Below are positions 1,191 to 44,204 of a stretch of DNA of 64,000 nucleotides, piece by piece. The stretch's first letter is position 1; the number at the start of each line of letters is the position of its first letter. Location of the stretch: contig JBJXGI010000103.1 of NCBI GenBank assembly GCA_046153645.1, forward strand, positions 1-64,000, written 5' to 3'. A program made the translations under genes and the position numbers. The DNA is from Elusimicrobiota bacterium. Lineage in GTDB: Bacteria; Elusimicrobiota; Elusimicrobia; F11. The notes under the pieces are model-generated. The model made no database searches, was not told where the DNA came from, and saw only the letters and a list, made by a program, of their open reading frames with translations.

Positions 1191-1610
1191 ATGGGAAATT
1201 TATTAGAAAAAAATAAACTTTCATCTTCTGGAAATGAGAATTCTAAAAAGAGAATTCTCATTGTTGAGGATAACCCCGCAGAACTAAGAATGTTGCATAG
1301 ATCACTATCGTTGGAAGAGAATTTTTCTGTGAAATCGACAAATTCAGGCTATCAAGCCGGATTCTTAACCCAATCTTTTAAGCCCGACCTTATTATATTG
1401 GATATCTTCCTTGAAGATGTTGATGGTCGCGAAGTGGCAAAAACAATTCAAGCTGATAATAAATTCAAAAGGACTAAGATTGCCGCAATTACTGGTACAA
1501 CTGATCCAAAAGAAATTGAAACTTTAGAGAGCTGTTGTTTTGATGAAATTATTTATAAGCCCATTGCGCCTCATTTGTTACGTCAAAAAGTAAAAAAAAT
1601 GTTGGAATAA
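1191..1610 (+). CDS. Single-domain response regulator (receiver)
   Basis: ILIVEDN, PDLIILD, AITG, YKPI receiver motifs. Confidence 0.9.
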   Translation: MGNLLEKNKLSSSGNENSKKRILIVEDNPAELRMLHRSLSLEENFSVKSTNSGYQAGFLTQSFKPDLIILDIFLEDVDGREVAKTIQADNKFKRTKIAAITGTTDPKEIETLESCCFDEIIYKPIAPHLLRQKVKKMLE

Positions 1611-1611
1611 A

Positions 1612-1953
1612 ATGCCGCGATATTTTATAGGAACTTTTATTTATTTCTGGATTCCATGCATTGTGTTGTGGGTTTTGTTAAGAAATAAAATCGATATCCC
1701 AACTAAAAAAGCCTTTTGGATCACCCTTGCTATCTTAACACCTCTTACATTTATAATGGAATATGTTTATTTATGGGCAGATATTTGGAATTTTACCGAA
1801 GAAGTTGACCCTTTATTAGGAATTGAAATTTTTGGGGCTCCTGTTGAAGAGTTTTCATTTTGGTTTGGAGCCGGTCCTTTTATTTTGTTGCTCTATTTTT
1901 CTTTTGATCGATTATTCAAAATGAAAAGGAAATCGCATGCCGCTTCCCGATAA
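1612..1953 (+). CDS. Lycopene-cyclase-domain (CrtYc/Yd-like) small membrane protein
   Basis: About 3 TM segments; IWNF...LLGIEIFGAPVEEFSFWF motif. Confidence 0.65.
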   Translation: MPRYFIGTFIYFWIPCIVLWVLLRNKIDIPTKKAFWITLAILTPLTFIMEYVYLWADIWNFTEEVDPLLGIEIFGAPVEEFSFWFGAGPFILLLYFSFDRLFKMKRKSHAASR

Positions 1954-2311
1954 TCCACATCCCACTCGAGATCCAGAAAGTGGATTTAGTTACCGCCGTG
2001 GAAATTGGAACCCCTTGTGGGCGATTTTTTCATTACCGTTTTTGTTTGTAATGATTCCCTTGTATCGACTTATTAAACACGAAGTCAATTTAAAAGCTGC
2101 ATTCTCATCCATCGCGGTATTTGAGGTTGTGTTATTGATTGCTGAGCATTACGCCCTCATGCATGGGCATTGGGTCTATAATGAGGCGCGGATTTTGGGC
2201 CCTAAAGTTTTTGGAATTCCTATTGAAGAACCACTTATTTATTATTTTTTCTGCCCCTTCATGGTCATTATGATGTTCCATGCGGTAAAAAAATATTTGT
2301 TAAAAAAATAA
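1937..2311 (+). CDS. Lycopene-cyclase-domain (CrtYc/Yd-like) small membrane protein
   Basis: About 3 TM segments; GHWVYNEARILGPKVFGIPIEEPLIYYF motif. Confidence 0.7.
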   Translation: MPLPDNPHPTRDPESGFSYRRGNWNPLWAIFSLPFLFVMIPLYRLIKHEVNLKAAFSSIAVFEVVLLIAEHYALMHGHWVYNEARILGPKVFGIPIEEPLIYYFFCPFMVIMMFHAVKKYLLKK

Positions 2312-2332
2312 TTGCAATCCGGAGGCTTTAAA

Positions 2333-2866
2333 ATGAACCTAATCGTTTGGGAAATATGGACATATGTTCAGATTCCGATTTATGTTTTTTTGTTTAAGCG
2401 TTTTGCAAAGAGAAATATTGTTGGAGATTTAATCGCGGGAAGTATTATGGGGGTGTATATAGAATTTGCAACTGAGCCTTTGTGGGACTACCATTTCAAA
2501 CTAACTGTTTACAAAGATATTCCTCTTTCCATTATTTTCGGTTGGGGCGTCATGTTTACTTTGGTTACTTTTTTCTCAGAAAAAATGTACTGCTGGATTT
2601 TAAAGAAAAAAGCCATTATCCCTTATGACAAACGAATTTTTATTTTTGACGTGGTGGGGGCAATTCTCATCGGCTTTCCATTAGAAGCCATTGGGTTAAA
2701 ATCAGGTATTTGGGATTATCGTTATGATTTGCTTCAGTGGGATTGGGGAACCGTTCCTCTTATTCAAATGCCGCTTGAAGCCTTGGTTGGATATGGTCTT
2801 TTAATGTTGTTAGCACCTACGTTTGTTCGTTATTGGCAAGGTTCGTTTGAAGGCGACCGTGCTTAA
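2333..2866 (+). CDS. Membrane protein with two cyclase-like repeats
   Basis: GGAGG RBS before ATG 2333; repeats LWDY...IPLSIIFGWG and GIWDY...MPLEALVGYG. Confidence 0.55.
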   Translation: MNLIVWEIWTYVQIPIYVFLFKRFAKRNIVGDLIAGSIMGVYIEFATEPLWDYHFKLTVYKDIPLSIIFGWGVMFTLVTFFSEKMYCWILKKKAIIPYDKRIFIFDVVGAILIGFPLEAIGLKSGIWDYRYDLLQWDWGTVPLIQMPLEALVGYGLLMLLAPTFVRYWQGSFEGDRA

Positions 2867-2891
2867 TGAATAAATAAACCTCATTTCTTTC

Positions 2892-4238
2892 ATGTCCCCT
2901 CCACAAACCCAGCCTCAATTATCAGGGGTGGATTCTGGCGTCGTTAAAAAACAACTGCTGGCCACAAGTATCCTTACCTTTTTTGTCTTCCTTATGTATT
3001 CCTGGGCTAAAAGTCCTTTTCATCCTTTTTTCCCCTATATCGTACTCACTTCATGTGTTTTTCACTTATTGTTATATTTTTTGGTAGGTTGGATTTCATT
3101 TAAAAAACCTTCTTTTTTGGCCTTTGTGAGTGTGTTCAATATATTTCTTTTAGGTGTGGCGATTCATTTATCAGGTGGGGTTATTTCTCCTTTTATTATG
3201 AGTTTTTTTTGCATTATTCTTTCTGATGTCGCTAATGGGATTGAATATCCCATTGGAATGGTCACTTCTGTTTTAGTGTATGGATTCGTTATTATGTTGG
3301 AATATTTTAATTGGGTAAAACCAGTTAATATTTCAACGAGTGAAATATATTCAAGTGGTGTTTTGACGTTTTCTATTATTTTGGGAACCGCATTTCTTCT
3401 TATTTATACCGGACAGATTTATAAAGTTATTATGGCCAACTTGCGTTTGAAACTAGAACAAGAACATAACGAAAAAAACAAAATGGTTCATGAATTGGCG
3501 CGTCTGGAAGCGCCCTCGAATATAGGTCTAATGGTTAATAAAATCACGCATGATATTCGGGGTCCCTTGCAAGCCATTTCTAGTTTTGTCTCGATGATGC
3601 AAGACAATAACACTCTTAATAAAGAAGATCGGGAAGATTGTGCGCTTATTTTAAAGGAAATTTGCCGAGTCTCTAATCTGGTCAACCGCATGCTCAAATA
3701 TGTTAAGCCTGGGGAATTGGAAAAAATAGAGTTTTCTGCAGTTGACCTCATTGAAACCATGTTGGCTGTTATTTCTTTCTATCCTGGCGCTAAGAAAATT
3801 AGATTCAAAAATAAATTACCGCTATCAGCTGAAAATGAATATTTGTTGTTCGCTAATAAAGAAGAATTACAGCAAGTATTTTTTAATATTTATAAAAATA
3901 GCATTGAAGCGCTATCAACCAAAACGGAAAATCCTCATATTTGGACAGGTATTGTTAGAGATAATAATGATGTCATTATCACGATTTCTGATAATGGTCC
4001 CGGGATGCCTAATGAAATAAAAGACAAACTCTTTTTAGAAAATTTCTCTTCTAAAAAAGAAGGAAACGGCTTGGGATTAATGATTTCAAAACAAATTTTA
4101 CTGAGTTATCAGGGCGATTTGGTTATTCAAAATAAAGAGCAGGGAGGATTACGTGTGGTTGTTCGTTTGCCCAGTCATTCATCGGCGAAAGTCACGAATG
4201 AAAGTGAGTCAAATTTGATACATGGAATGAAGTTATGA
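2892..4238 (+). CDS. Multi-TM membrane sensor histidine kinase
   Basis: Hydrophobic N-terminal ~180 aa; H-box ITHDIRGPL; N-box QVFFNIYKNS; DNGPG and GNGLGL boxes. Confidence 0.92.
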   Translation: MSPPQTQPQLSGVDSGVVKKQLLATSILTFFVFLMYSWAKSPFHPFFPYIVLTSCVFHLLLYFLVGWISFKKPSFLAFVSVFNIFLLGVAIHLSGGVISPFIMSFFCIILSDVANGIEYPIGMVTSVLVYGFVIMLEYFNWVKPVNISTSEIYSSGVLTFSIILGTAFLLIYTGQIYKVIMANLRLKLEQEHNEKNKMVHELARLEAPSNIGLMVNKITHDIRGPLQAISSFVSMMQDNNTLNKEDREDCALILKEICRVSNLVNRMLKYVKPGELEKIEFSAVDLIETMLAVISFYPGAKKIRFKNKLPLSAENEYLLFANKEELQQVFFNIYKNSIEALSTKTENPHIWTGIVRDNNDVIITISDNGPGMPNEIKDKLFLENFSSKKEGNGLGLMISKQILLSYQGDLVIQNKEQGGLRVVVRLPSHSSAKVTNESESNLIHGMKL

Positions 4239-5482
4239 AAAAAAGATCAATGTGGGTAATATGTGCGGTGGCTTTATTAATGGTGTATGCCAATTTTTTA
4301 TTTTCAGCTGGGTATGAGTTCGAGGGTTTGGGAGGCAGACAAGTCTCGCGCGGTGGAGCGGCCATTGCCAGCGCAGATGATTGGACCGCCACTTATTGGA
4401 ATCCAGGTTCAATCTCTAAGAGCATCAAAGGTAAAAGAGGCGATGTTGGGTTAGAAGTATTTGGGGGGGAAGCTTATGGCAAAGATTCCAATTCTTTGTC
4501 AAGTTTATCTGGAGTTGGACCTAAATTTTCAAAAGATAAATTAAATTCTAATTTTATATTGGGCGCTTTGGGTGGAATTTTTCCTGTTGGCTCCAACGGA
4601 GGTATTGGATTTAGTGTGTATACCCCGTTACTTCAAGGTGTCGATTTTAAAGATATTGCCAACGATGGTTCTGGTTTGGCTCTTTCTTATAAAGGTTCAC
4701 TCGGGCTTGTCACAACAAATATTTCAGGCAGTTACAATTTCATACCAGAACTTTCGATTGGGCTTGGATTGGATATCCTTTATGGTCGATTAATGACCAA
4801 GGCCAATTTAGATAATTTTTTAATTCCAACCAATACACTGACAACCGATCTTGATGGTGACGGGATTGGATATGAGGGAATTGTGGGGATTCGTTACGAC
4901 GCTTCACAAAAAATAACAATTGGCGGTGTTTATAGATCTGGCAGCGATATTCATTTAAAAGGAAACGTGAGCGCAACGAATTCATCTCTTTTACTTCCCA
5001 GTGAAAAAAGTGATTTTACTTTTGTTCTCAGGCACCCTGCGACAGCTGGCATAGGTGTGGCTTTCAAACCCGTTTCAAAATTAAATTTTACATTTGATGT
5101 AAATCGAACTTTTTGGCACCGTTTTTCCAATGCCATTAACTATAAAACAGAAGGCACTTTATTAAGAGATGTTCCAAACTCTTTTCACTGGAAAAACACT
5201 TGGAAATTCCGATTTGGAACGGAAGTCCACCTATCTTCTAAATGGGATTTATTAGGAGGATATTCATATGACCAAGCGGCTTTAGATGCCAACAGCGTTG
5301 ACTTTGCTAACTCAGTTGATGTTCCTATGAATCGGTTGTATTGGGGCGTTTCTCGCCATTGGAATGAAGCTTGGGAATCAACTCTGGGAAGTGTAATGGG
5401 GTACGGTGAAAGAGAGGAGCAGGGTCTTCGTTATCGACTTTCTGGTTATCAAATTATGCTGGAAACTCGATTAAAATATTGA
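4235..5482 (+). CDS. OmpP1/FadL/TodX-family outer-membrane transporter for hydrophobic compounds
   Basis: Signal peptide; AGYEFEGLGGRQVSRGGAAIASADDWTATYWNPG N-terminal signature; WKNTWKFRFGTE; C-terminal aromatic residue. Confidence 0.85.
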   Translation: MKKRSMWVICAVALLMVYANFLFSAGYEFEGLGGRQVSRGGAAIASADDWTATYWNPGSISKSIKGKRGDVGLEVFGGEAYGKDSNSLSSLSGVGPKFSKDKLNSNFILGALGGIFPVGSNGGIGFSVYTPLLQGVDFKDIANDGSGLALSYKGSLGLVTTNISGSYNFIPELSIGLGLDILYGRLMTKANLDNFLIPTNTLTTDLDGDGIGYEGIVGIRYDASQKITIGGVYRSGSDIHLKGNVSATNSSLLLPSEKSDFTFVLRHPATAGIGVAFKPVSKLNFTFDVNRTFWHRFSNAINYKTEGTLLRDVPNSFHWKNTWKFRFGTEVHLSSKWDLLGGYSYDQAALDANSVDFANSVDVPMNRLYWGVSRHWNEAWESTLGSVMGYGEREEQGLRYRLSGYQIMLETRLKY

Positions 5483-5558
5483 AAATAAAAACAATGTTAC
5501 CGGCATGACGAATTAGTCAACTGAATAATCTGGGTTAAAAAAATTTATTCTCTCTGGT

Positions 5559-5574
5559 TGGCATAAATTTTGCT
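5559..5574 (+). promoter_or_regulatory. sigma54 -24/-12 promoter
   Basis: TGGCATAAATTTTGCT (GG-N10-GC), intergenic. Confidence 0.75.
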
Positions 5575-5586
5575 AAAGTCTGAAAA

Positions 5587-6204
5587 ATGGCCCGAAAAAA
5601 TAAATTATCCTCTAAAAATAACAACTCCGAAAAGTCCTACACCATAGGAGAGTTGGCCAGTATTTGCCAAGTAACGCCCACAACTATTTATAGGTGGGTT
5701 ATAAGTAAAAAAATACCTTCATTTCAAACGATGGGGAGGCATCACCGAGTATGGGAATCAGATGCTTTTACACTTTTTTCTTCTCTTGATATTCCTCACT
5801 CTCAGTTTAGAGCAAAAAGTATTATTCTAAAAGTTCTTATTGTTGATGATAAACCCTCCATTCGGCGATTGATACGCCGGTTAATTCAATCGAAATTTCC
5901 TAAAGCTCTTATTATCGAAGCTGTTGATGGTTATGAAGCCGGATTTAAAACGCGTGATGAAAAACCACAGCTGGTTATTTTGGATTTAAATCTTCCAAAA
6001 ATTGACGGTGTCAAGGTCTGTCAAATGATTAAAGAGAGTAAAGATCTCCTCCAAACCAAAGTGTTAGCCGTTACCGGAGTGGCGCCTGAAAGATCTCAAA
6101 AGATGGTGTTAAAAGCAGGGGCCGACGCCTTTCTTGCAAAACCTTTTGATAATGAAGATTTTATTTCCAAGGTACAGATGCTGTTGGTAGATTTTTTAAA
6201 CTAG
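5587..6204 (+). CDS. Excisionase/MerR-like HTH plus receiver domain regulator
   Basis: YTIGELASICQVTPTTIYRW...GRHHR HTH; VLIVDD...LVILDLNLP...AKPF receiver. Confidence 0.88.
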   Translation: MARKNKLSSKNNNSEKSYTIGELASICQVTPTTIYRWVISKKIPSFQTMGRHHRVWESDAFTLFSSLDIPHSQFRAKSIILKVLIVDDKPSIRRLIRRLIQSKFPKALIIEAVDGYEAGFKTRDEKPQLVILDLNLPKIDGVKVCQMIKESKDLLQTKVLAVTGVAPERSQKMVLKAGADAFLAKPFDNEDFISKVQMLLVDFLN

Positions 6205-14275: not shown

Positions 14276-15403
14276 ATGAAAGTGTTGATTGTTGAAGATG
14301 ATCAAACCACGCGTCAGTTTTATGAGAAAGTAGCCAAAACTCTCGATTTGGAGCCATACGCATTTCCAGATGCTGAATCTGCTTGGATCGCTTACGAAAA
14401 TGAATCCTTTCCGATTGTTATATTAGATTGGTTACTTCCAGGTATGAATGGTCTTCAGTTGTGCCAACAGATGCGTGCCCACTCCCTTGGTCAGTGGAGT
14501 GTGATTTTAGTTGCTACTGTCAAAAATCATACAAATGATTTAAGGGAAGTTTTAAAGGCAGGGGCGGATGATTATATAACGAAACCTTTGGATATAGAGC
14601 ATTTACAAATTCGATTGGAAATTGCCAAAAACAACGCTCAAAAATTAATGGAAAAACAAAAAACAGATGGGCAGTTGCAAGAATTGCGTGATCAAATGCT
14701 TATTGCTGAAAGGTTGGTTTCGGTTCGAGGTATGGTTTCAGGCGTTTCACATGAGCTCAATAATCCCTTACAAGGCATATTAGGAATGTCGCAAGTTTTA
14801 GTCGTTGAGGCCAAAGATCAGGGGATTAAAGCCGATATAGAGGAAATCATTCAATTGGCAAATCAGTGTAAAACAATTATTCATGACCTTCTTATATTTT
14901 CTGAAGGCGAAGAGAAAAATAAAGAAATTGTAGATATGCATCAGGCTTTAGAACGGTTTTTGAATATTTGGAAGAAAAAAATGGTTTCTGAAAATGTGCA
15001 TGTCATTAAAAAATTTGATTCTGAAGCGGCCCCTGTCAACGGCAATATGAGCAGAATAAACCAAGTATTGTTTCACTTATTTCAAAATGCGGTGCAGGCC
15101 ATGCCTCAAGGGGGACTTATCATCATTGAAACTAAAGTTGATAAGAGTGACGTTCAAAATTATTTAGAGATGAAATTCAAAGATACGGGCCAAGGAATTG
15201 CCGCAGATCAAATTAAGCAAGTTTTTGATCCATTTTTTACAACCAGAGAAGTTGGAGAAGGGAAAGGGCTTGGTCTGTCTGTTTGCCATGGAATTATTCG
15301 TGAATATGGCGGTCAAGTTAAGATTCAAAGTGAAGGACTTGGGAAAGGAACTGTTGTTACGGTTCGTTTGCCTCTTGTTTCACTTAATGAATCAAAGGTA
15401 TAA
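14276..15403 (+). CDS. Receiver-histidine kinase hybrid
   Basis: GAGG RBS; VILDWLLP; VSHELNNPL; PFFTTREVGEGKGLGL. Confidence 0.93.
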   Translation: MKVLIVEDDQTTRQFYEKVAKTLDLEPYAFPDAESAWIAYENESFPIVILDWLLPGMNGLQLCQQMRAHSLGQWSVILVATVKNHTNDLREVLKAGADDYITKPLDIEHLQIRLEIAKNNAQKLMEKQKTDGQLQELRDQMLIAERLVSVRGMVSGVSHELNNPLQGILGMSQVLVVEAKDQGIKADIEEIIQLANQCKTIIHDLLIFSEGEEKNKEIVDMHQALERFLNIWKKKMVSENVHVIKKFDSEAAPVNGNMSRINQVLFHLFQNAVQAMPQGGLIIIETKVDKSDVQNYLEMKFKDTGQGIAADQIKQVFDPFFTTREVGEGKGLGLSVCHGIIREYGGQVKIQSEGLGKGTVVTVRLPLVSLNESKV

Positions 15404-15407
15404 AAAT

Positions 15408-16944
15408 ATGGGCTCTATTATTCATGCGTCAAAAGTGTACACAAAAGAAGAACTTCGATTACTTGAAACAATTCCCGATCCTTGTTCCATTATTATTTTT
15501 GGAGCTTCTGGAGATTTGGCTTTTAGAAAACTGTTCCCTTCTATTTTTTTCCTTTTAGAACAAGGTTTAATGCCTAAAAATTTTTACGTGCTGGGCGTGG
15601 CACGTACACCACTTTCTAAAGAAGAATTTCATGGGAAGTTAATGGCTAGTTTACCTGTTGATGTGAGTTTAGATCTTAAGAAAGAATTTATTGAAAGGTG
15701 TAATTATTTATCAGGAGATTATGGAGCGTCTCAAACTTATCAAGATTTAAATGAGTGTTTAAATAGTTTGGATGTAAAGTACGGAGTGGGGAAAAAAAGA
15801 GTATTTTATTTGTCGGTGCCCCCCTTCTATATATGGAACTGTTATTCAGAATTTGGGGGAGGCGCGGCTAACAGATTTTTCTGAATCTCAAAATGAATGG
15901 TCTCGCGTTATTATAGAAAAACCATTTGGCTTTTCATTCGATTCCGCTAATAAATTAAACGAGGAAATTAAAAATGTTTTACGAGAAAAACAAATATATC
16001 GAATTGATCATTATTTAGGTAAAGAAACAGTCCAAAATATAATGATGTTTCGTTTTGCCAATATTTTATTTGAACCTGTTTGGAATAGAAATTATATCGA
16101 TCATATTCAAATCACAGCCTCGGAGAAATTAGGAGTGGAACATCGAGCTGGTTATTATGAACAAACGGGAATATTGAGAGATATGTTCCAAAATCATTTG
16201 CTTCAAATTTTGGCTTTGATTGCGATGGAGCCGCCCTCGGGCCAAGATGCCGACACGGTGCGAGATAAACGCGTTGAGGTTTTTAAATGTTTTAGATCGT
16301 TAAGCAACCCCGTGATGGAACAAAATACAATTTGCGGTCAATATGCGGCCGGTTTTATTGATGGTAATGAGGTATGTGGGTATCGCCAAGAAAAAAATGT
16401 TAATCCAAAATCGATTACACCCACCTATGCCGCTATTCGATTTGAATTGGACAATTGGCGCTGGCAAGGGGTTCCGTTTTATATGCGCGCTGGAAAAAGA
16501 CTGGAGGACCGTTTGGTTGAGGTGGTGGTTCATTTCAAGCGTGTTCCCGCTTCAATATTTACGCCGCTTTTTGCGGATCAACTGTCCGCGAATATTCTCA
16601 AATTTAGAATTCAACCCGATGAAGGAATCACCATTCAATTTGAAGCCAAACACCCTGGGCCAAAATTATGCATGAGTACGGTCACCATGGATTTTGGCTA
16701 TCAAAAAACATTTAAAACACCGCCTCCAGAATCATATGCTCGTTTATTGCACGATGCGATGGTTGGAGATCAAACCCTTTTCGCTCGGAGTGACGAAATA
16801 CTGCAATCATGGCGTATTATTGACCCTGTCATAAAATATTGGGAAGCGAAATCACACTTTGATTTGCCGCTTTATCCCGCAGGAAGCTGGGGACCTAAAG
16901 AAAGTGATATGTTGCTCGCCAAAAGCGGACGAAGTTGGTATTAA
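15408..16944 (+). pseudogene. zwf: Glucose-6-phosphate 1-dehydrogenase, split by a +1 frameshift in a C6 run (15819-15824)
   Basis: IFGASGDLAFRKLFP in the first frame; EKPFG, RIDHYLGKE, RDMFQNHLLQ, RWQGVPFY in the second; removing one C restores YLSVPPSIYGTVIQNLGEA. Confidence 0.9.
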
Positions 16945-36090: not shown

Positions 36091-37389
36091 TCACGCCGCT
36101 TTAAATAGGCCTATTTGATTGGTTGGTAGATAAACTGTAAAAGTTGCGCCCTTCCCTAATTCACTGCTCAATTCAATTTTCCCTTGATGTTTTTGAGTAA
36201 TCTCATAGACAAGCGAAAGTCCAAGCCCTGTTCCTTTGCCTACTTCTTTGGTGGTAAAAAAAGGTTCAAAAATATTTTTTTTAATGTCTTCAGGGATTCC
36301 GGGGCCAGTATCTGAAATTTGTATCGCAACTGATTCGACGTTTTGAAAATGACTGGTGAATGTTTTGACTGATAAGGTCCCATTTTCTTTCATGGCATCG
36401 ATAGCGTTGTTACATAAATTAATAACAACTTGTTGGATTTGGTTTTTATTGGCCAAAATCGTTGGGAGAGAATTGTCTAAATCTTTTATCAGTTCAATGG
36501 TGTTAAATTTGCTTTGAGCTTGAATAAGGAAGAAAGCGTCTTCAATAGCCGAATTAATTGAAATACTTTCAAATTGACTCGCAATAGGAGTTCTGGAAAA
36601 AGTCAGTAGGTTTTGGACAAGGTTTTTGCACCGGCCTGCTTCTCTTTCAATATGTTCGACGGGGATATAAAGAGGGTTATCCAAAGCAATTCTGGATTTA
36701 AGGCTTTGGGCAAAACCGAGAATAACACCCAGTGGGTTATTGATTTCATGGGCGACCCCACCTGCCAGTTGACCTACGGCTGACATTTTTTCACTTTGAA
36801 TAAATTTATTTTCTAAATTTTTTCTCTCTGTAATATCTCGAAAACTCCAGACTCTTCCAATAATTTTATTTCCGCTAAACTGTGCTTGGGAATACCTTTC
36901 AAAAACTCGACCATCTTTAAAATACAGGACATCAAAACTAGTGGCCTCTGGTTGAGAATACAGTTCTTTGACTTTGGCAACAAAAGTCTCAGGGTCCTTG
37001 AGTTGTGAGGTAGCAAATTCGATGACTTTTGCGTCATCTTTTTGGGTCACAAGAGTTAATGGCAAATGCCACATTTCAACAAACTTCTGATTAAAATCAG
37101 AGATATGACAATCTTTATCTACCACCAAAATCCCATCAGCGGTAGAATCTAATGTGGCTCGTAATAGAGACATCGATTTTTCTAATTTTTGTAAAAGAGA
37201 ATGCATTTCTCCGTTGGCTTTAACGAGCTCTTCTGAACTTATTTCCATTGATCGTTCTAACATAAGGCGGTCTTCATCAAATTGACGGTAAGATTGGCCA
37301 ACAGCTTTAATAAATTCAATACAAGAAAATGAAATTTCTTCAAAACTGCCAAAATGTCGTTTGATTTGACGATTTAAAAGACTATGCAT
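36091..37389 (-). CDS. PAS sensor histidine kinase (FIST-associated)
   Basis: [15 protein letters not shown]-terminus; [32 protein letters not shown]; ends FKAA. Confidence 0.93.
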
Positions 37390-37395
37390 AACGAC

Positions 37396-38532
37396 TCATT
37401 TTTCTTCTGAAAACGTGGTAATCGTCATGGTTTGATTGTGTAGTTCACATTTAAAATTGGCAATAAATGGCGCAATTTCACCGTAGGAATAAAAGCCAGT
37501 GAGAATCGTACTTTCTCCTTGAATCTCTCTGACTGCCTCCACTTCTTCTTCGGTTCGTTGTTTTAAAATTAATTTCCGACCCACGCAGCTGATAAGTATG
37601 GCTAATTCTGCTGGTTGATTTATCGCTTGTTGACATATCTTAGCCGCACCTTGAGCGCCATCAATTAATCTGTCGAAATTGGCGCGCATCAAAAAAGCAA
37701 ATTCGCCTTCTGGAATGTCGCCTGCAAAAGTCATGCTTTTTTCAGACTCATTGACTGATAAGATAGTTCGAACCACTCCTTTTTCATTATTTTCTGTCAT
37801 GAGACAAAGTGGAAATAAAAGTCCTGTGGCTGGAAGGCCCGAGGCATGTTCTCCTAAGTATGATTTGTACAAATCAAGGGCCGATTTTCCATCAAGCTCG
37901 AAAAGGACATTTCCTTTTGATTTGGTAATTTTTCTTTTTGGACCAAAGGTGTCCCATCCGCCGAGTGAACCAAAACCAATTTTTAATTTATCTCCATAAA
38001 ACCCAATCACGCAAATAGTTCCTGATTCGGCACTTCCATGAGATAGCACAATTGTTTCAGTAAATCGTGCTCCATCTCCTGATAAACCACCTGTTACTTG
38101 TACATTGGAGGGAAGGTTTTTCGTTAAACCTTTGACAAGATCGCTCCCATTGACTTTAAGTCCATCCGATAAAACAAAAACATGCACTAAGCCTTTCTTT
38201 TCTAATTTTTGAGCTAGTTTTTCTCCAACCGTCGTGCTTTGGCTGGGTTCAGATATTTTTTCCTTTTCAACTTGGATCGTCGATTTTTCAAAGTGTGCTG
38301 CTGTGACAACCAACGAGTCATCATATACTCTGGTTCCACAAATTTCTCCTGCAGTAGAACAACCAATGATTTCTGATTGAGGGTAAAAGTCTTTAATTTC
38401 TTTAAGACGTTTTAAATCTTTTATGGTATTTGTTGCACCAAAAACAAATACCAATTGAGCCTTTTTAGTCAAAGGGTCGCCTTCTAAAATCCATCCAGAT
38501 TCGGTTTCCCATCTTCGTTGTTCAATTTTCAT
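37396..38532 (-). CDS. FIST N/C-domain signal protein (NosP-like)
   Basis: IIGCSTAGEI, TGGLSGDG, ISCVGRK, GFYSYGEI, LHNQTMT. Confidence 0.93.
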   Translation of the reverse strand: MKIEQRRWETESGWILEGDPLTKKAQLVFVFGATNTIKDLKRLKEIKDFYPQSEIIGCSTAGEICGTRVYDDSLVVTAAHFEKSTIQVEKEKISEPSQSTTVGEKLAQKLEKKGLVHVFVLSDGLKVNGSDLVKGLTKNLPSNVQVTGGLSGDGARFTETIVLSHGSAESGTICVIGFYGDKLKIGFGSLGGWDTFGPKRKITKSKGNVLFELDGKSALDLYKSYLGEHASGLPATGLLFPLCLMTENNEKGVVRTILSVNESEKSMTFAGDIPEGEFAFLMRANFDRLIDGAQGAAKICQQAINQPAELAILISCVGRKLILKQRTEEEVEAVREIQGESTILTGFYSYGEIAPFIANFKCELHNQTMTITTFSEEK

Positions 38533-40121
38533 ATGTGAGCTCCTGTGTTTACATTTATTGGAAAACTTAAGTTAAAACTTGTTCCGATTCCCAGCTGACT
38601 TTCAACTTTAATAGATCCACCAAAGCGTTCAACGACGTCTTTGCAAATAGAAAGGCCCAATCCGGTTCCTTCACCGATAGGTTTGGTGGTAAAAAAAGGT
38701 TCAAATATTTTCGAAATGTTTTCTGGCGCAATGCCTGATCCACTATCTTTTATTTGGAGTTCAATGGATGTAGATTTTTTTTCAGCTTTTATAAGAATGG
38801 TTTTATTTAAAGAGTCTTTCATGGCCTGCCGAGCGTTGTTGATGAGATTTAAAATAACTTGTGACAATTGAGTGGGATCTCCTACAAGATTGGGAAGGTC
38901 TTCAGGAATGGAACAGGTAACGTTCACCTGTGAACCTTCTAAATCATGCTTGAGCATTTTTAATGCCATCTCCACTAATTGGCCTATTTGGAGCGTGTCT
39001 TGTTTGGGAGTTCTCTTACCGCTGAATTGCAAGAGGTTTTGAATGACTTCATTACAGTGTTTACTTTGGTTGACAATAATATTCAAATCCTCTTTTTGTT
39101 CTTCCGTTAGGCCATCGTTATCAAGGAACAATTGGGCAGAGAGTAAAATACCGTTAAGTGGGTTATTTAGATCATGAATAACGCCAGCAGTCATTTTTCC
39201 AATAGTGGCCAATTTATCTGAATGAATAAGTTGTTGTTCTGTTTCTTCGAGCTTTTTTATGGTGTTGGTTAACTCACCTACTTTATTATTAAGTTTTTCA
39301 TACATTTGAACGTTATGAAAAACTTGAGTAATTTGTGTGCCGTATAAGGGGACGCTGATAAGATCTGTGTTTGAAAATGAATCTTTTGAATCGGTTCGAT
39401 TTAAATTGAAAACACCAATTATTTTATTTTCAATTATTAAAGGGAAGAAAATAGATGAGTTTATGTTGTTAATCCCATTAATAAGGAGAGCCTGATTCCA
39501 ATCAGGTGTTTTTATTAAAAGTTGTTTACAAGTATCAGCTCGAATATCACGATCTCTGGGGTCAGAATATTCTGTGCTAATGATCGAAGGGTTATTTGTA
39601 TCAGCACATAAGTAGATCATGACGTCATTGGCTTTAACAGTTTTCTTGCAGAGAAGCGCGATTTGTAAGAGAAGCGTATCCAACTTATCAGTGGAAAAAA
39701 CAATTTTACTCGCTTCATAAACGCCCATAAGGGTTTTTAACTCGCTTCGGTCCAAAGCTTTTTCAATGAGGGAAAAAATATCAACCAAGTTGAAAGGTTT
39801 TTGAATGAAATCAAAGGCCCCTTTTTTCATGGCATCTACAGCTGTTTCAATGGTGCCAAATCCCGTGGCTAAAATAACTTCAATGTCCGGGGCTATTTTT
39901 TTAACTGTATCTAAGAATTCAACACCGCCCAGTTTGGGCATTTTGACATCGCTAATAATAAGTTGAAATTTTCCTTGCGATAGTTTTTCGAGAGCCTCTT
40001 GTCCATTGTTCGCAGTTGTCACTTGATATCCTTTTGATCCCAATTCATAGGATAAAAGTTCTCTTATGCCCATTTCATCATCAACAACAAGAATTTTAAC
40101 GTTTGATTGTATTTCCGTCAT
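38529..40121 (-). CDS. Receiver-GAF-like-histidine kinase
   Basis: IISDVKMP receiver; central FFPLIIENKIIGVFNL; VIHDLNNPL; GEGTGLGL. Confidence 0.92.
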   Translation of the reverse strand: MTEIQSNVKILVVDDEMGIRELLSYELGSKGYQVTTANNGQEALEKLSQGKFQLIISDVKMPKLGGVEFLDTVKKIAPDIEVILATGFGTIETAVDAMKKGAFDFIQKPFNLVDIFSLIEKALDRSELKTLMGVYEASKIVFSTDKLDTLLLQIALLCKKTVKANDVMIYLCADTNNPSIISTEYSDPRDRDIRADTCKQLLIKTPDWNQALLINGINNINSSIFFPLIIENKIIGVFNLNRTDSKDSFSNTDLISVPLYGTQITQVFHNVQMYEKLNNKVGELTNTIKKLEETEQQLIHSDKLATIGKMTAGVIHDLNNPLNGILLSAQLFLDNDGLTEEQKEDLNIIVNQSKHCNEVIQNLLQFSGKRTPKQDTLQIGQLVEMALKMLKHDLEGSQVNVTCSIPEDLPNLVGDPTQLSQVILNLINNARQAMKDSLNKTILIKAEKKSTSIELQIKDSGSGIAPENISKIFEPFFTTKPIGEGTGLGLSICKDVVERFGGSIKVESQLGIGTSFNLSFPINVNTGAHI

Positions 40122-42331
40122 GCGGCCACTCCAAATAAGTTATTGAAAGATTCATGCCCCGAATCTTTTTTCCTTTTCAAAAGACTTTTAACTCTTCCCA
40201 CGACGGTCGTGGGACTCGAAGGTTTAATAAGATAGTCGTCGGCGCCTAGGGTGAGTATTTCATTTTTAATTTTCTCATCGGTGACAGCGGTTAGGACAAT
40301 CACCGGAATATCTTCAAAACCCATAATTTGACGCAAACTTTTTAACACCTCGCTTCCATTCATGGTGGGCATCATCAGATCCAATAAAATTAGATCGAAT
40401 TTAAAGTTAACCATCGTATTGATTGCTTCAAGTCCATTTTGAACACTGGTAACTTGAAACCCCTCATTTTCAAGGATGGAAGTGTACACTTGGCGAATGG
40501 TCTGATCATCATCTACAATTAAAATATGGTTTTGATTCTCATTTTTTTTGGGAAAAGAAGGAATTGTTGTTGAAACTTGAGGAATTGGTAACATTTCTTC
40601 CTCATCATCAAAACTTCCTAAGATATTTAGAAAAGAACGTACCTCATCTAATGATGTGTTTCCTTGTGATATTTGCCAGAGGGCATCTTTCCATAGAAGT
40701 TGAAGTGATTTATTTGCTAAGGCGCATTCTTGAAGGGTACTTTGAATATCTCCGGCCGCAATTGACTTCTTAACGTCATTGTCTAAATCCCATAGTTCTA
40801 AAAGTGGAATTTGCCCTTTATATCCAGTGAAATGACATTGTTTGCATCCTTTGTGTTTGAAAACAATAGGTTTAAGATTTTCACCCAAAAGTGCAGTGCG
40901 GAGAGTTGAATTTATTTTTTCAGAAGGTATCTCTACCTTACAGTGAGGACATAATCGTCTCACTAGTCTTTGCGCGGTCACTCCTAAGAGGCAAGAGGCG
41001 ATTTTATAGGGTTCAATGCCGATATCGCGGAGTCTCTCTATCGTAGACATGGCGTCATTGGTGTGAAGAGTTGAGAAAACGAGATGTCCCGTCATGGCAG
41101 CTTGAATGGCAATCTTGGCTGTTTCAAGATCTCGAATTTCACCAACCAAAATAATATCAGGATCTTGTCGTAAAACGGACCGAAGGACATTGGGGAAAGT
41201 GAGGCCTTGTTTTTCATTGACTTGAACTTGGTTAATGCCTTCTAATCTATATTCAATGGGATCTTCAACCGTTGTAATGTTAGTGTGCTCAGCTTTTAAT
41301 TTATTCAAAGCTGAATATAGAGTGGTGGTTTTTCCGGAACCCGTAGGTCCTGTGACAAGAATAATACCTTGTTCCGATTTGACCATTTGAGAAAGGCGAT
41401 CACTTAAAGTAGGACTAAATCCTAATCCCTCAAAGGGAACTTCCGCAGCCCTTTTATCCAGTAACCGCATAACGACTTTCTCGCCATTATTTGTTGGCAG
41501 AATAGACACTCTAAACCCAATTTCCGCGTTTTGAAATCTGAAGATGGCTCGCCCATCTTGAGGACGATAATGATCAGCGATATCTAAATTAGAAATAATT
41601 TTAATTCGGGCGACAACAGATCCTGTTCCTAAATCTTTTGGCAAGACCAAAATGTTCTTAAGTAAGCCGTCAATTCGAAATCGCACCATGCTTTTGTTGT
41701 CTTCATGTTCGAGGTGGATATCTGAAGCCCTCATGGTGATGGCTTTTTTAATAATTAATTCAACCAATCTAATGATAGAGGATTCGCCGTCTTTAAGGCC
41801 GGGTGTATCTTTTGACTCAATAGCTTCTTGTATTTCTTTGTCTTGCAGTTCGTCGGGTTTTTCTAGGCGGTTTAAAACATCCTGGAGATAAAACTCAGGA
41901 GAAAATATTAAATTAAATAGTGAATTTATTTGACTGGGTAGACAAAAGTGTGGGGTGGGGGTTCTCCCGGAAAATGTTTGAACATCAGCCAGGGCGTCAA
42001 CATCAAGGGGGGTAAGCATGGCAACATGCAAGTTCTCTCGTTCTAGTCGAAAAGGAATTAATTGTCGACGTCGGCAAACTTTTTCGGGGACCAATGATAA
42101 GGCCATTTTGTCGATGTCTTCAACTTTTAGCGCAGTGACTGGCACCCGGTAGGTATCCTGAATAATGCGTGTTAACGTTTCTAGCGATAAAATGCCTGCT
42201 TGAAGCGTGGCTTCAGAGAGTGATGGTTTTTTCGTTTTGCGAAACCATTCAATTTTTTCAAGCGGCAATTCAGGGAACCCTTTGAGCGCCCTTATTAACC
42301 ATTCATCTGAGAAAATGTATTTTTCTTCCAT
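40118..42331 (-). CDS. PilB/GspE-family ATPase with C-terminal receiver domain
   Basis: RASDIHLE, PQDGR, GPTGSGKTTTLY, LRQDPDIILVGEIRD, CPHC/CKQC; then ILIVDDD...ILLDLMMP...IKP; ends GVAA. Confidence 0.93.
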   Translation of the reverse strand: MEEKYIFSDEWLIRALKGFPELPLEKIEWFRKTKKPSLSEATLQAGILSLETLTRIIQDTYRVPVTALKVEDIDKMALSLVPEKVCRRRQLIPFRLERENLHVAMLTPLDVDALADVQTFSGRTPTPHFCLPSQINSLFNLIFSPEFYLQDVLNRLEKPDELQDKEIQEAIESKDTPGLKDGESSIIRLVELIIKKAITMRASDIHLEHEDNKSMVRFRIDGLLKNILVLPKDLGTGSVVARIKIISNLDIADHYRPQDGRAIFRFQNAEIGFRVSILPTNNGEKVVMRLLDKRAAEVPFEGLGFSPTLSDRLSQMVKSEQGIILVTGPTGSGKTTTLYSALNKLKAEHTNITTVEDPIEYRLEGINQVQVNEKQGLTFPNVLRSVLRQDPDIILVGEIRDLETAKIAIQAAMTGHLVFSTLHTNDAMSTIERLRDIGIEPYKIASCLLGVTAQRLVRRLCPHCKVEIPSEKINSTLRTALLGENLKPIVFKHKGCKQCHFTGYKGQIPLLELWDLDNDVKKSIAAGDIQSTLQECALANKSLQLLWKDALWQISQGNTSLDEVRSFLNILGSFDDEEEMLPIPQVSTTIPSFPKKNENQNHILIVDDDQTIRQVYTSILENEGFQVTSVQNGLEAINTMVNFKFDLILLDLMMPTMNGSEVLKSLRQIMGFEDIPVIVLTAVTDEKIKNEILTLGADDYLIKPSSPTTVVGRVKSLLKRKKDSGHESFNNLFGVAA

Positions 42332-42363
42332 AGGTTTTGTTTTGGCTTTTTACCTCAATAATC

Positions 42364-42391
42364 TTATCGGTTGTAGATTGATTTCCCTTGA
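42364..42391 (-). promoter_or_regulatory. sigma28-type promoter of the ATPase-REC/FIST operon
   Basis: TCAAG-N15-ACCGATAA. Confidence 0.7.
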
Positions 42392-42500
42392 GAGGTTTTT
42401 TATGAAAGGGTCTTGAAATTGCTTGGGTATTCTGCGAATATCAATAACAATACAATCAATACAATTAAATCATACATATCAAGGGCTTCTTTTTTTGAGT

Positions 42501-42516
42501 TCGCATGAAATTTGCT
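42501..42516 (+). promoter_or_regulatory. Variant sigma54-like site (CG instead of GG at -24)
   Basis: TCGCATGAAATTTGCT upstream of the basal-body operon. Confidence 0.4.
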
Positions 42517-42578
42517 GAAAGAGAAGTTTGGAAACAAGTGAAGTAAAAAGATACCAAGGTCGTTCCCGAGAGGTATGT

Positions 42579-42956
42579 ATGGAAGATAAAAATAAAGTTA
42601 TTAAAGGAATAACAGGAATTATTCTGGATATATTAGCTGATGAGAAAAGTTGCATTCTTTCGGCTAACTGGCCGAAGTTGGATATCTTGATTCGGCGAAA
42701 GTCAAAATTATTGATGAAGCTAGAAAATATCGGCTTTGAGCATTTAAATGATTTATATGTCTTTGACCCCAGAGTTGTGGAAATTAAGGCTGTCATTCAG
42801 CAAATAGTCAATGCTGAAGATGAAAACGCAACCCTTTTAAAGGTTCAAATGTTAGAGATTAAAAACCAATTAGCGCATGTGAAGGATGTACTGAAAACCG
42901 CCATTTATGGATCCGTTGATGATAAATCAACGGCCATTTTACGTCAAAGCTACTAG
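42579..42956 (+). CDS. FliT/FlgN-like helical protein
   Basis: GAGG RBS; NWPKLDILIRRKSKLL...IQQIVNAEDENATLL...AIYG. Confidence 0.55.
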   Translation: MEDKNKVIKGITGIILDILADEKSCILSANWPKLDILIRRKSKLLMKLENIGFEHLNDLYVFDPRVVEIKAVIQQIVNAEDENATLLKVQMLEIKNQLAHVKDVLKTAIYGSVDDKSTAILRQSY

Positions 42957-42980
42957 TTTTAATTAAACAAGGAGTTTATC

Positions 42981-44204
42981 GTGGAGAAAGAGAAAGTATT
43001 AGTTGTTGATCAAGATGAAGAAATTAAAAAAACCATTCGACGTCTTTTAGATAAAACTCGTTATCAAATTTTTACCGCCGCCGAACAAGAAGAAGCATTG
43101 TCCTTGGTCAAACGTCGTCTTCCAAAATTAATCATCATGGATTTACATACTCCGAGAATTAGAGGAGTTGAACTTATTCAAACCATGAAAGATGTTCATA
43201 GAGATGTAAGAACCATTGTTTTCGCTGGACGTTCGAGCGATGAATCCGGTGCGTTGGCATCAGAACTAGGAGTTGATGGTTGTTTGGTTAAACCAGTTAA
43301 TATCCAGAAATTATCTTCATTACTCAATCAATTATTAAATGATTCAAACTCAACGGGGATTCACGGTTCAAGCGCCGATCATTTTTTAAGGCCCATTATT
43401 GGAGAATCTCCAAAATTGGCGGAAGTGATGAATCTTGTGAAAAAAGTGGCGGCCAGTTCAGCTACGGTATTACTTCAAGGAGCCAGTGGAACTGGAAAAG
43501 AATCCGTTGCCCGAGCTATTCATTATTATTCGCCAAGAAGAAGTAACCCTTTTCTTACTGTTAATTGCGCGGCATTGCCTGATGGCCTTTTGGAGAGTGA
43601 ATTATTCGGTGTTTGCCAAGGAGCCTATACGGGCGCTTTTGCTAACCGCCCGGGGAAAATGCAATTGGCTGATGGAGGATCGTTAATACTAGATGAAATT
43701 AGTGAAATGCCTTTGTCGCTTCAAGCAAAATTATTAAGAGCCATTCAGGAAAAAGAAGTAACTCCTTTGGGAGGAGGGTATCCCCTCAAAGTCAATGTGC
43801 GTTTTGTGGCAGTTACTAACCAAGACTTAGCTAAAAAAGTCCGAGAGGGAAAATTTCGGGAAGACCTGTTTTTTCGATTGAACGTTGTTCCTATTAATTT
43901 GCCGGCATTAAAAGAACGAAGAAGTGATGTTCGTCTTTTGGTTGATCACTTTGTTAAGAAGTTTGGCGCCGCCAATGGAAAACCGGTCATGAAAGTTGAC
44001 GATGAAATGATACGAATTCTTGAAGATTACGACTGGCCTGGCAATATTCGTGAATTGGAAAATTTAGTTGAGAGGCTTATTATCTTAAGTGAAAAAGATC
44101 GTTTAACAATAGAAGATTTACCTTTTTCAATGACAGAAAAAGTAAATACTTTTCCAAAATTGACGACAGCACTCCCAATTGTTCAAACCGATGTGATGAA
44201 TTGA
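42981..44204 (+). CDS. sigma54-dependent activator (REC-AAA+), no C-terminal HTH, FlgR-like
   Basis: IIMD receiver; GASGTGKE, ELFG...GAYTGA, LDEISEM, WPGNIRELEN; ends ~25 aa after EDLP. Confidence 0.9.
   Translation: MEKEKVLVVDQDEEIKKTIRRLLDKTRYQIFTAAEQEEALSLVKRRLPKLIIMDLHTPRIRGVELIQTMKDVHRDVRTIVFAGRSSDESGALASELGVDGCLVKPVNIQKLSSLLNQLLNDSNSTGIHGSSADHFLRPIIGESPKLAEVMNLVKKVAASSATVLLQGASGTGKESVARAIHYYSPRRSNPFLTVNCAALPDGLLESELFGVCQGAYTGAFANRPGKMQLADGGSLILDEISEMPLSLQAKLLRAIQEKEVTPLGGGYPLKVNVRFVAVTNQDLAKKVREGKFREDLFFRLNVVPINLPALKERRSDVRLLVDHFVKKFGAANGKPVMKVDDEMIRILEDYDWPGNIRELENLVERLIILSEKDRLTIEDLPFSMTEKVNTFPKLTTALPIVQTDVMN

Follow-up and report, generated by a model that had tools for sequence, protein, structure and literature searches.

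A Linked Set of Lycopene-Cyclase-Domain Membrane Proteins, a Sensor Kinase and a FadL-Family Channel in Elusimicrobiota

Gene Content of the Locus

The window analysed here is a 64,000-nucleotide stretch of an Elusimicrobiota genome (assembly GCA_046153645.1, contig JBJXGI010000103.1, positions 1 to 64,000), which carries a unit of seven genes on the + strand, at 1191-6204, running from a receiver protein (RR1) through a second response regulator (RR2). The unit also encodes three membrane proteins, named here CycA, CycB and CycC, a histidine kinase (HK) and a FadL-family porin (Table 1). The genes from RR1 to FadL are separated by +1, -17, 0, +25 and -4 nt, the CycA and CycB genes overlapping by 17 nt and the FadL start overlapping the HK stop by 4 nt, and RR2 starts 104 nt after FadL; the 4-nt HK/FadL overlap also occurs in three related loci (L026, L029 and L063). 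An earlier reading made from the letters of the window (the sequence-only reading) had described a packed unit of a receiver, small cyclase-like proteins, a kinase and an overlapping FadL gene, and all six frames were recovered on the + strand at the positions of Table 1. In a public protein record CycC starts at residue 8, the ATG at 2333, and its true length is probably 177 amino acids (aa).

In the genome G000, which measures 2.63 Mb and is 99.7% complete, the window is contig C58. Of its 67 open reading frames (ORFs) of at least 110 aa, 61 were scanned, the six omitted being shadow ORFs that overlap longer ones. In agreement with the sequence-only reading, none of the 61 encoded a phytoene synthase, a desaturase or a prenyltransferase; the remaining content of the window consists of signalling genes and a large flagellar cluster. 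Promoter and terminator scans of the locus did no better than shuffles (20 versus 18.3 and 4 versus 4.2, respectively), and the sequencing runs listed for it are four DNA runs from one biofilter study, with no RNA run.

Table 1. Genes of the seven-gene unit and the main domain assignments of their products.
Gene	Position	Strand	Product
RR1	1191-1610	+	139 aa; receiver only; PF00072 Response_reg, E 1.6e-18
CycA	1612-1953	+	113-aa membrane protein, CrtYc/Yd-like lycopene-cyclase domain; PF18916 20.7 bits, TIGR03462 34.1 bits
CycB	1937-2311	+	124-aa membrane protein, lycopene-cyclase domain; PF18916 Lycopene_cyc 30.9 bits
CycC	2312-2866	+	184-aa polytopic membrane protein; no Pfam/NCBIfam match
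HK	2892-4238	+	448 aa; HisKA + HATPase_c behind a multi-transmembrane N-terminus
FadL	4235-5482	+	415 aa; FadL/OMPP1/TodX family, PF03349 103.9 bits
RR2	5587-6204	+	205 aa; HTH_17 (PF12728) + receiver (PF00072)

CycA, CycB and the Fused Form CycD

The two smallest proteins were compared with the curated models of the lycopene-cyclase domain, whose cut-offs are 27 bits for PF18916 and 39.4 bits for TIGR03462. CycB exceeded the first and, with 35.6 bits, remained below the second, and CycA was under both. Nearly all of the 20 database relatives of CycB were tagged PF18916, and their sources name them lycopene cyclase domain-containing proteins. Profile alignment showed CycA to be homologous to CycB (hhalign probability 96%). 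M-E-Y, I-W-x-F and P-x-E-E-F were invariant in 7 of 7 CycA sequences, as were W-x-x-N-E-A-R-I and P-I-E-E-P-L in 20 of 20 CycB sequences. The acidic motif P-[IV]-E-E, PVEE in CycA and PIEE in CycB, is invariant in each family alignment, as are a W-x-[YF] turn and a transmembrane (TM) glutamate. The W-x-[FY]...P-[VI]-E-E motif that the sequence-only reading had picked out in two small proteins is invariant in both families.

The P-x-E-E motif is typical of lycopene cyclases of the CrtYc/CrtYd type, and to our knowledge proteins with a lycopene-cyclase domain are known solely as carotenoid enzymes. CycA and CycB resemble CrtYc and CrtYd in being encoded by adjacent overlapping genes, in their size of about 110-125 aa, in their two to three hydrophobic segments, and in the P-x-E-E motif and domain homology. 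They differ from them in that the module stands without adjacent crt genes, the scores lie at or below the curated cut-offs, most genomes with the module have no phytoene desaturase and some no phytoene/squalene synthase at all, and the Cyc genes are tied to a membrane kinase, usually to FadL, and to the paralogues CycC and CycD.

CycD was identified in related loci. Besides the window, 35 distinct loci were collected, 30 from species-representative contigs and 5 from genome searches, with duplicates removed, and CycD occurred in 7 of them. It is a protein of about 250 aa with two PF18916 stretches that passes both models (PF18916 29.9 bits, TIGR03462 50.2 bits), and its N-terminal half aligns with CycB at an hhalign probability of 96%; this fused two-domain form recalls that of archaeal CrtY. 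A tblastn search did not find CycD in the genome of the window, the best matches (E ~1e-3) falling on CycA and CycB themselves.

Conservation of the Module

CycC proved the most specific marker of the module and was found in 7 of 41 close relatives and, in a phylum-wide sample of 301 genomes, in 14. It was not found in the small-genome families f7 (0 of 88) and f17 (0 of 89), and the module was present in three of the six genomes of genus g40. The relatives of the window are named metagenome-assembled genomes (MAGs) of Elusimicrobia or Elusimicrobiota by their sources.

The neighbourhood survey showed that the linkage noted in the window recurs in other genomes. The kinase adjoins the Cyc genes, or has only CycD in between, in 32 of 34 informative loci (L064, cut by a contig end, was left out of this count), and FadL adjoins the kinase in 24 of the 30 loci with enough sequence beyond it. 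In nearly every locus the gene immediately before the kinase is CycC or CycD. The linkage holds in families f1, f2, f9, f14, f25 and f28, belonging to at least two classes of the phylum. The gene order itself varies: it is CycA-CycB-HK-FadL-CycC in L043, FadL is divergent and upstream in L044, and the genes outside the module differ between loci. Since gene order and outside genes vary while the adjacency stays, the arrangement does not appear to be mere inherited synteny.

Two types of locus were distinguished. Type I, the kind seen in the window, comprises an HTH_17-receiver regulator, CycA, CycB, one or two CycC, CycD, HK and FadL; type II, from family f14, has an extra paralogous kinase upstream and often a PF04240 protein after FadL. 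This "carotenoid biosynthesis" protein, encoded after FadL in 8 of the 35 loci, scores 45.6 bits (cut-off 25) and belongs to the family of CruF-type carotenoid 1,2-hydratases (Caroten_synth), of which the window has no gene. The sequence-only reading, sound as to the unit itself, had missed that relatives carry a fourth cyclase-like gene, CycD, as well as RR2 and the RegB-like domain of the kinase described below.

Two loci have Cyc genes without a kinase. One, L072, is a 2.7-kb contig binned as Acidobacteriota. In the other, L035 (G158:C38), CycC is followed by an ABC_tran/ABC_tran_2 pair, an ABC exporter; the CycC match there is interrupted by two in-frame TAA stops, some residues of the locus are masked (X), and this may be a decaying or rearranged second copy.

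No literature was found that combines the lycopene cyclase domain with a histidine kinase or FadL; histidine kinase and FadL are mentioned together, and the cyclase domain with neither. For Elusimicrobia and carotenoids, the search led only to the hpnCDE passages of PMC7306690. The PLEE motif gave no literature match, and the cyclase motif terms were not present in PMC3153474. The parts come from known protein families; the arrangement, as the sequence-only reading had supposed, the CycC family and the Insig-like cyclase fold described in the following section were not found described in the literature.

CycC and a Possible Resemblance to Insig

All 120 close homologues of CycC are hypothetical proteins from Elusimicrobiota MAGs, and an exhaustive scan of 1.84 billion protein representatives returned 66 clusters at E <= 1e-3. 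The family has 19 invariant columns, which include E14, E51, D106, D113, E125, E156 and R173 and many of which are acidic, and CycC identity between families is 58-69% versus 21-44% for the kinase.

The sequence-only reading had described two related repeats in this protein. The N-terminal and C-terminal halves do align in register, although the statistics are weak (hhalign probability 20%, E 1e-3). CycC also aligns in register with the cyclase domain (hhalign probability 8-18%, E ~1e-3). A broadened hidden Markov model (HMM) of the CycC family, A5, matched CycB (E 2e-4) and CycA (E 5e-4), which were its sole matches besides CycC among 2,948 genome ORFs of at least 100 aa, and the alignment keeps the E...WxY...PxE register column for column. 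On these comparisons CycC would be a remote relative of the cyclase domain with a probable internal duplication.

AlphaFold2 (AF2) models of CycC and of CycD from L028, with predicted local distance difference test (pLDDT) values of 91.5 and 74.5, were each compared with 48,161 structure chains. The top match of the CycC model was the mycobacterial Insig homologue 4xu4_A (Z 7.9, root-mean-square deviation 3.5, 133 residues), with the next unrelated match at Z 6.0 and human Insig 6m49_A at rank 6 (Z 5.0). For helical bundles, Z values below about 13 can reflect common packing alone. The CycD model returned the same top match (Z 9.6 over 176 of 189 residues), followed by human Insig at rank 2 (Z 7.4) and the next chain at Z 5.7, in the same range. 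A Foldseek search against the PDB gave nothing at E <= 1e-3, and the ESM Atlas returned unnamed clusters only, with a best score of 0.90. As both models share the same top match, we read CycC as having the cyclase-domain fold, and that fold as resembling Insig.

Insig and its mycobacterial homologue MvINS (6m49, 4xu4) have a polytopic lipid-binding fold, which is the best match of the CycC and CycD models; the sequence identity is 6-14%, and the Z values of 5.0-9.6 can be reached by helical-bundle packing alone. Insig has no known catalytic role and is not known to carry a PxEE motif. A resemblance between Insig and lycopene cyclase was not found described in the literature.

A relationship of CycC with the PF04240 family was also considered. 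The window's CycC had no PF04240 match, sub-threshold matches were given by 2 of 36 CycC family members and 3 of 32 distant relatives, and CycC aligned with the PF04240 proteins of the module at an hhalign probability of 0.3%.

The Kinase, FadL and the Regulators

About five hydrophobic segments precede the HisKA and HATPase_c domains of HK and form a membrane sensor domain of approximately residues 1-195. A loop between hydrophobic segments reads H-L-S-G-G-V-I-S-P-F. Its residues G95, G96, S99 and P100 do not vary among the 14 module kinases compared; these kinases are 21-42% identical to the window's HK and share the consensus H-x-[ST]-G-G-[IV]-x-S-P-[FLY]. RegB binds ubiquinone at a GGXXNPF loop located between TM3 and TM4, for which its residues N110 and F112 are needed (PMC3000548).

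The N-terminal 195 aa of HK matched the ActS/PrrB/RegB model NF033792 weakly but collinearly (E 0.012, 14.5 bits). Collinear RegB-model top matches were returned for the N-termini of three of the four kinases tested, with E 0.012 as the best value, and such weak matches were limited to that family. HK resembles RegB, PrrB and ActS in having a polytopic membrane domain directly before HisKA/HATPase_c and a GG-x-x-S-P-F loop at the position of the RegB quinone site. It differs in that R31 and Q38 of RegB are not recognisably conserved in the module kinase and that there is no RegA-type partner, and the full-length protein scores 67.5 bits against a cut-off of 350. Because a serine replaces the loop asparagine, its sequence places HK as RegB-like in layout and outside the RegB family. 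A word-index search with the membrane region of the kinase returned the query itself only.

The same membrane domain was observed in two further settings. In a 543-aa protein encoded elsewhere in the genome of the window (contig C85:65862-67538; L074:911-2539), the module-kinase membrane domain, with the loop IHLTGGMNSPL, is joined to a GAF domain at the C-terminus instead of a kinase core, suggesting that the sensor domain is portable between outputs. In type II loci the second kinase, with the same GGxxSPF membrane domain, lies directly upstream of CycA with no adjacent response regulator (for example L036:6868-8145, with equivalents in L059, L060, L061 and L066).

The FadL protein is well above the PF03349 cut-off of 29.7 bits, has an N-terminal hydrophobic segment at residues 8-26, as expected of an export signal, and shares 37-52% identity with the FadL proteins encoded behind the kinase in relatives. 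It is not the equivalog of E. coli FadL (NF007988, 30.1 bits versus 585). FadL-family proteins are known as importers and form channels for hydrophobic molecules across the outer membrane; TodX is encoded with TodST in the tod operon, and long-chain acyl-homoserine lactones are taken up in a FadL-dependent manner. The module resembles systems of the TodX/TodST type in encoding a FadL-family channel beside a sensor kinase and a response regulator, whereas those have catabolic partner genes or a soluble kinase and the module has cyclase-like proteins, a polytopic kinase and no catabolic genes.

RR1 has no DNA-binding domain and is 47-51% identical to the receiver parts of the regulators found upstream of CycA in relatives, which in five of five relatives tested consist of HTH_17 and a receiver. 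RR2 is 32-46% identical to the same regulators. These comparisons indicate that the window's upstream regulator has lost its helix-turn-helix (HTH) domain and that the architecture is supplied by RR2, which, because it has the HTH_17-receiver architecture of the relatives' upstream regulators, is probably the DNA-binding regulator and output of the unit. A complex prediction with two HK membrane domains (residues 1-200) and CycC gave a score of 0.00, which counts neither way.

Relation to Carotenoid, Squalene, Quinone and B12 Genes

The sequence-only reading had proposed a search for crt genes elsewhere in the genome, and a compact and complete crt cluster was located on contig C85 of G000 (C85:164703-170981; L012:2704-8982). 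It encodes a CrtY-type cyclase dependent on flavin adenine dinucleotide (FAD; PF05834, E 1e-76), a polyprenyl synthase (CrtE), CrtI and CrtB, together with a 198-aa membrane protein without Pfam or NCBIfam match and a family-2 glycosyltransferase, a gene content that suggests a glycosylated cyclic carotenoid in this genome. The pathway expected by that reading as the mark of an ordinary cyclase is thus present, but the C85 cluster has a CrtY-type cyclase of its own.

Of 18 module genomes, three (G000, G141 and G204) had a CrtI-family protein above cut-off, G276 and G012 gave sub-threshold matches, and a search with a protein query agreed with this. Four of 41 relatives had a CrtY-type cyclase, which coincided with the module only in G000. 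The phytoene/squalene synthase family SQS_PSY is near-universal in the window's class, module or not (156 of the 301 genomes sampled; 87 of 88 in the module-free family f7), but at E <= 0.01 it was not found in G099 (100% complete), G158 (91%) and G201 (81%), module genomes of other classes. A search of G000 for a squalene-hopene cyclase found none, and squalene was rejected as the substrate in view of the lack of correlation between SQS_PSY and the module. No crt gene was seen beside the module in the 11 loci with Pfam-scanned flanks, except for the PF04240 protein in L036. Since most module genomes had no CrtI-family protein above cut-off and SQS_PSY was not found in three, neither self-made carotenoids nor squalene can serve as the general substrate. 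With a CrtY in the crt cluster itself and most module genomes lacking CrtI, the assignment of CycA and CycB as the cell's carotenoid cyclase appears unlikely rather than confirmed.

Salvage of quinone or haem was considered as well, since a Peripla_BP_2/FecCD/ABC importer follows the module in 10 loci of family f14. The best matches of this importer are BtuF and BtuC, and a cobalamin riboswitch (RF00174, 31.8-38.6 bits) precedes it in nine of the nine f14 loci tested (L053, L054, L066, L070, L047, L061, L059, L069 and L062; for example L070:11241-11399). No TonB-dependent receptor gene was seen between riboswitch and importer. Because it has its own riboswitch, the importer is a separate B12 unit, and the salvage proposal was rejected.

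As for menaquinone synthesis, 17 of 301 genomes had the futalosine pathway (PF02621), and it coincided with the module in G000 and G005 alone; within genus g40 the two are complementary, with three genomes having the module and three having Mqn. MenD was above cut-off in 0 of 30 genomes, and cytochrome bd was strong in 12 of 17 module genomes and in 4 of 13 genomes without the module. These data suggest a link of the module with quinone dependence, which is undercut by the presence of both in G000 and G005 and by the relatedness of the genomes.

Proposed Function and Alternative Explanations

Starting from the observed gene content, homologies, conserved linkage and independence from carotenoid genes, we infer a catalysis, a ligand, a direction of transport and a contact between kinase and lipid. 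The reading that we tentatively favour, at somewhat less than an even chance, is that the Cyc proteins are enzymes of the membrane whose substrate is a hydrophobic lipid other than a carotenoid, probably an isoprenoid, which FadL moves and the kinase monitors. The module would be a self-contained envelope module specific to Elusimicrobiota, in which CycA, CycB and CycC are integral-membrane proteins of the lycopene-cyclase-domain fold, joined in relatives by CycD or the PF04240 protein. By analogy with CrtYc/Yd, CycA and CycB may form a heterodimer. The Cyc proteins would cyclise, hydrate or isomerise the end of a hydrophobic chain other than the cell's own carotenoid in a proton-initiated reaction, using buried acids to protonate the terminal double bond as their carotenoid relatives are thought to do. 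FadL would carry the compound across the outer membrane, import being the known direction of the family; the RegB-like membrane domain of the kinase would bind substrate or product within the bilayer, and the signal would pass through RR1 and RR2 to control expression. Catalysis seems the most likely role since the buried acidic motifs of the family are kept, and the degree of conservation of CycC between families, well above that of the kinase, is consistent with this proposal.

Several observations weigh against it. CycA misses both curated cut-offs and CycB that of TIGR03462, and the kinship of CycC to the cyclase domain is backed by E-values of 1e-3 to 1e-4. In structure, CycC and CycD come closest to Insig, which senses lipids in a regulatory role and is not an enzyme. 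None of the operon's genes encodes an enzyme that would supply a substrate. The loop of HK has serine where RegB has the asparagine needed for quinone binding, and the RegB model falls far short of its cut-off. Six of the 30 informative loci have no adjacent FadL (L033, L051, L052, L055, L056 and L058), and in L035 and L072 the Cyc genes stand without a kinase. The genomes compared are all metagenome bins, and those that are related do not count as independent samples.

The Insig match therefore favours a different role, in which the Cyc proteins would be Insig-like lipid-binding partners of the kinase that, on binding a lipid, join or let go of its membrane domain and thereby set its activity, much as Insig acts on Scap or as accessory membrane proteins act on intramembrane-sensing kinases. 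The shared top match of both models, the position of CycC or CycD directly before the kinase in nearly all loci, the operon's lack of substrate-supplying enzymes and the two paralogous kinases that flank the Cyc genes in type II loci are all consistent with such co-receptors. The Z values, though, may reflect packing only, the strict acidic pair of PxEE and the many buried charges favour catalysis, and three to five different cyclase-like genes per operon would be odd for a co-receptor, so that we regard this role as unlikely, if still worth serious attention. A bolder version, which we consider a speculative and unlikely proposal, is that the lycopene-cyclase domain and Insig share an ancient lipid-binding fold and that the Cyc proteins are lipid-gated partners or ligand makers for the RegB-like kinase, in which case the module would be a bacterial equivalent of Insig-type lipid sensing, coupled to a two-component system and supplied by FadL. 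The module could also be a cassette for signalling between cells, in which Cyc enzymes make a hydrophobic, terpenoid-type autoinducer out of a common isoprenoid of the membrane, FadL lets it cross the outer membrane and the kinase is its receptor. CqsA/CqsS, LqsA/LqsS and RpfF/RpfC are precedents for signalling of this kind, and the combination of enzymes, membrane kinase, regulators and channel without catabolic genes, the patchy distribution typical of accessory signalling systems (14 of 301 genomes; three of six in g40) and the dense signalling-gene neighbourhood in the window agree with it. We know of no precedent for cyclase-domain proteins as signal synthases, however, while FadL-family proteins are known as importers and six loci lack FadL, and we hold the cassette to be rather improbable.

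Two further explanations deny the module a distinctive joint function. The adjacency of HK, FadL and the Cyc genes might be inherited synteny without shared function, with the Cyc proteins acting on a housekeeping lipid and the two-component system controlling other genes or processes. Common descent within one phylum inflates the counts, the B12 transporter also follows the module in f14 and is nonetheless a separate unit, and the two loci without a kinase point the same way; yet the adjacency survives the rearrangements of L043 and L044, the gain or loss of CycD, duplicates of CycC and the addition of PF04240, and it spans classes, overlapping stop and start codons link the genes and the flanking genes differ by locus, all of which makes simple synteny quite improbable. 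The least probable explanation by our estimate, to which we give very little weight, is that CycA and CycB serve the cell's own carotenoid pathway as a lycopene beta-cyclase of the ordinary heterodimeric CrtYc/CrtYd kind. Domain homology and the complete crtE-crtI-crtB set on C85 agree with it. It is opposed by the CrtY-type cyclase already present in that cluster, by the 15 of 18 module genomes without a CrtI-family protein above cut-off, by the module genomes of other classes in which SQS_PSY was not found (G099, G158 and G201) and by the flanks of the module, which in the 11 loci scanned hold no crt gene apart from the PF04240 gene of L036.

Should the Cyc proteins be enzymes, as we tentatively favour, they would point to a new class of modified isoprenoids in the membrane, or of lipid signals, in a phylum of which few members are in culture; were they sensors, this would be the first regulatory role for the fold and a link to the Insig-type lipid sensing of eukaryotes. 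In either case the module is a defined small gene set, with three to five membrane proteins, one kinase, one regulator and one porin, and the GGxxSPF loop is a candidate lipid-binding site in a portable bacterial sensor domain.

Other Features of the Window

Outside the module, a glucose-6-phosphate dehydrogenase gene at 15198-16944 is split over two overlapping ORFs in different frames. Positions 1-120 of G6PD_N are found in 15198-15884, and positions 133-183 together with G6PD_C in 15853-16944, and the split reflects either a frameshift or an error of assembly near 15853-15884.

A near-complete flagellar gene set occupies 20050-63876 and includes flgFG, flgAHI, flgNKL, fliW, flagellins, fliDS, motAB and fliFGHIJ, as well as fliK, flgDE, fliLMNOPR, flhBA and a FliA-like sigma factor. 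It is broken by a signalling island at 36091-44204, which encodes a FIST protein, hybrid kinases, a fusion of a T2SSE ATPase with a receiver, and a sigma-54 activator.

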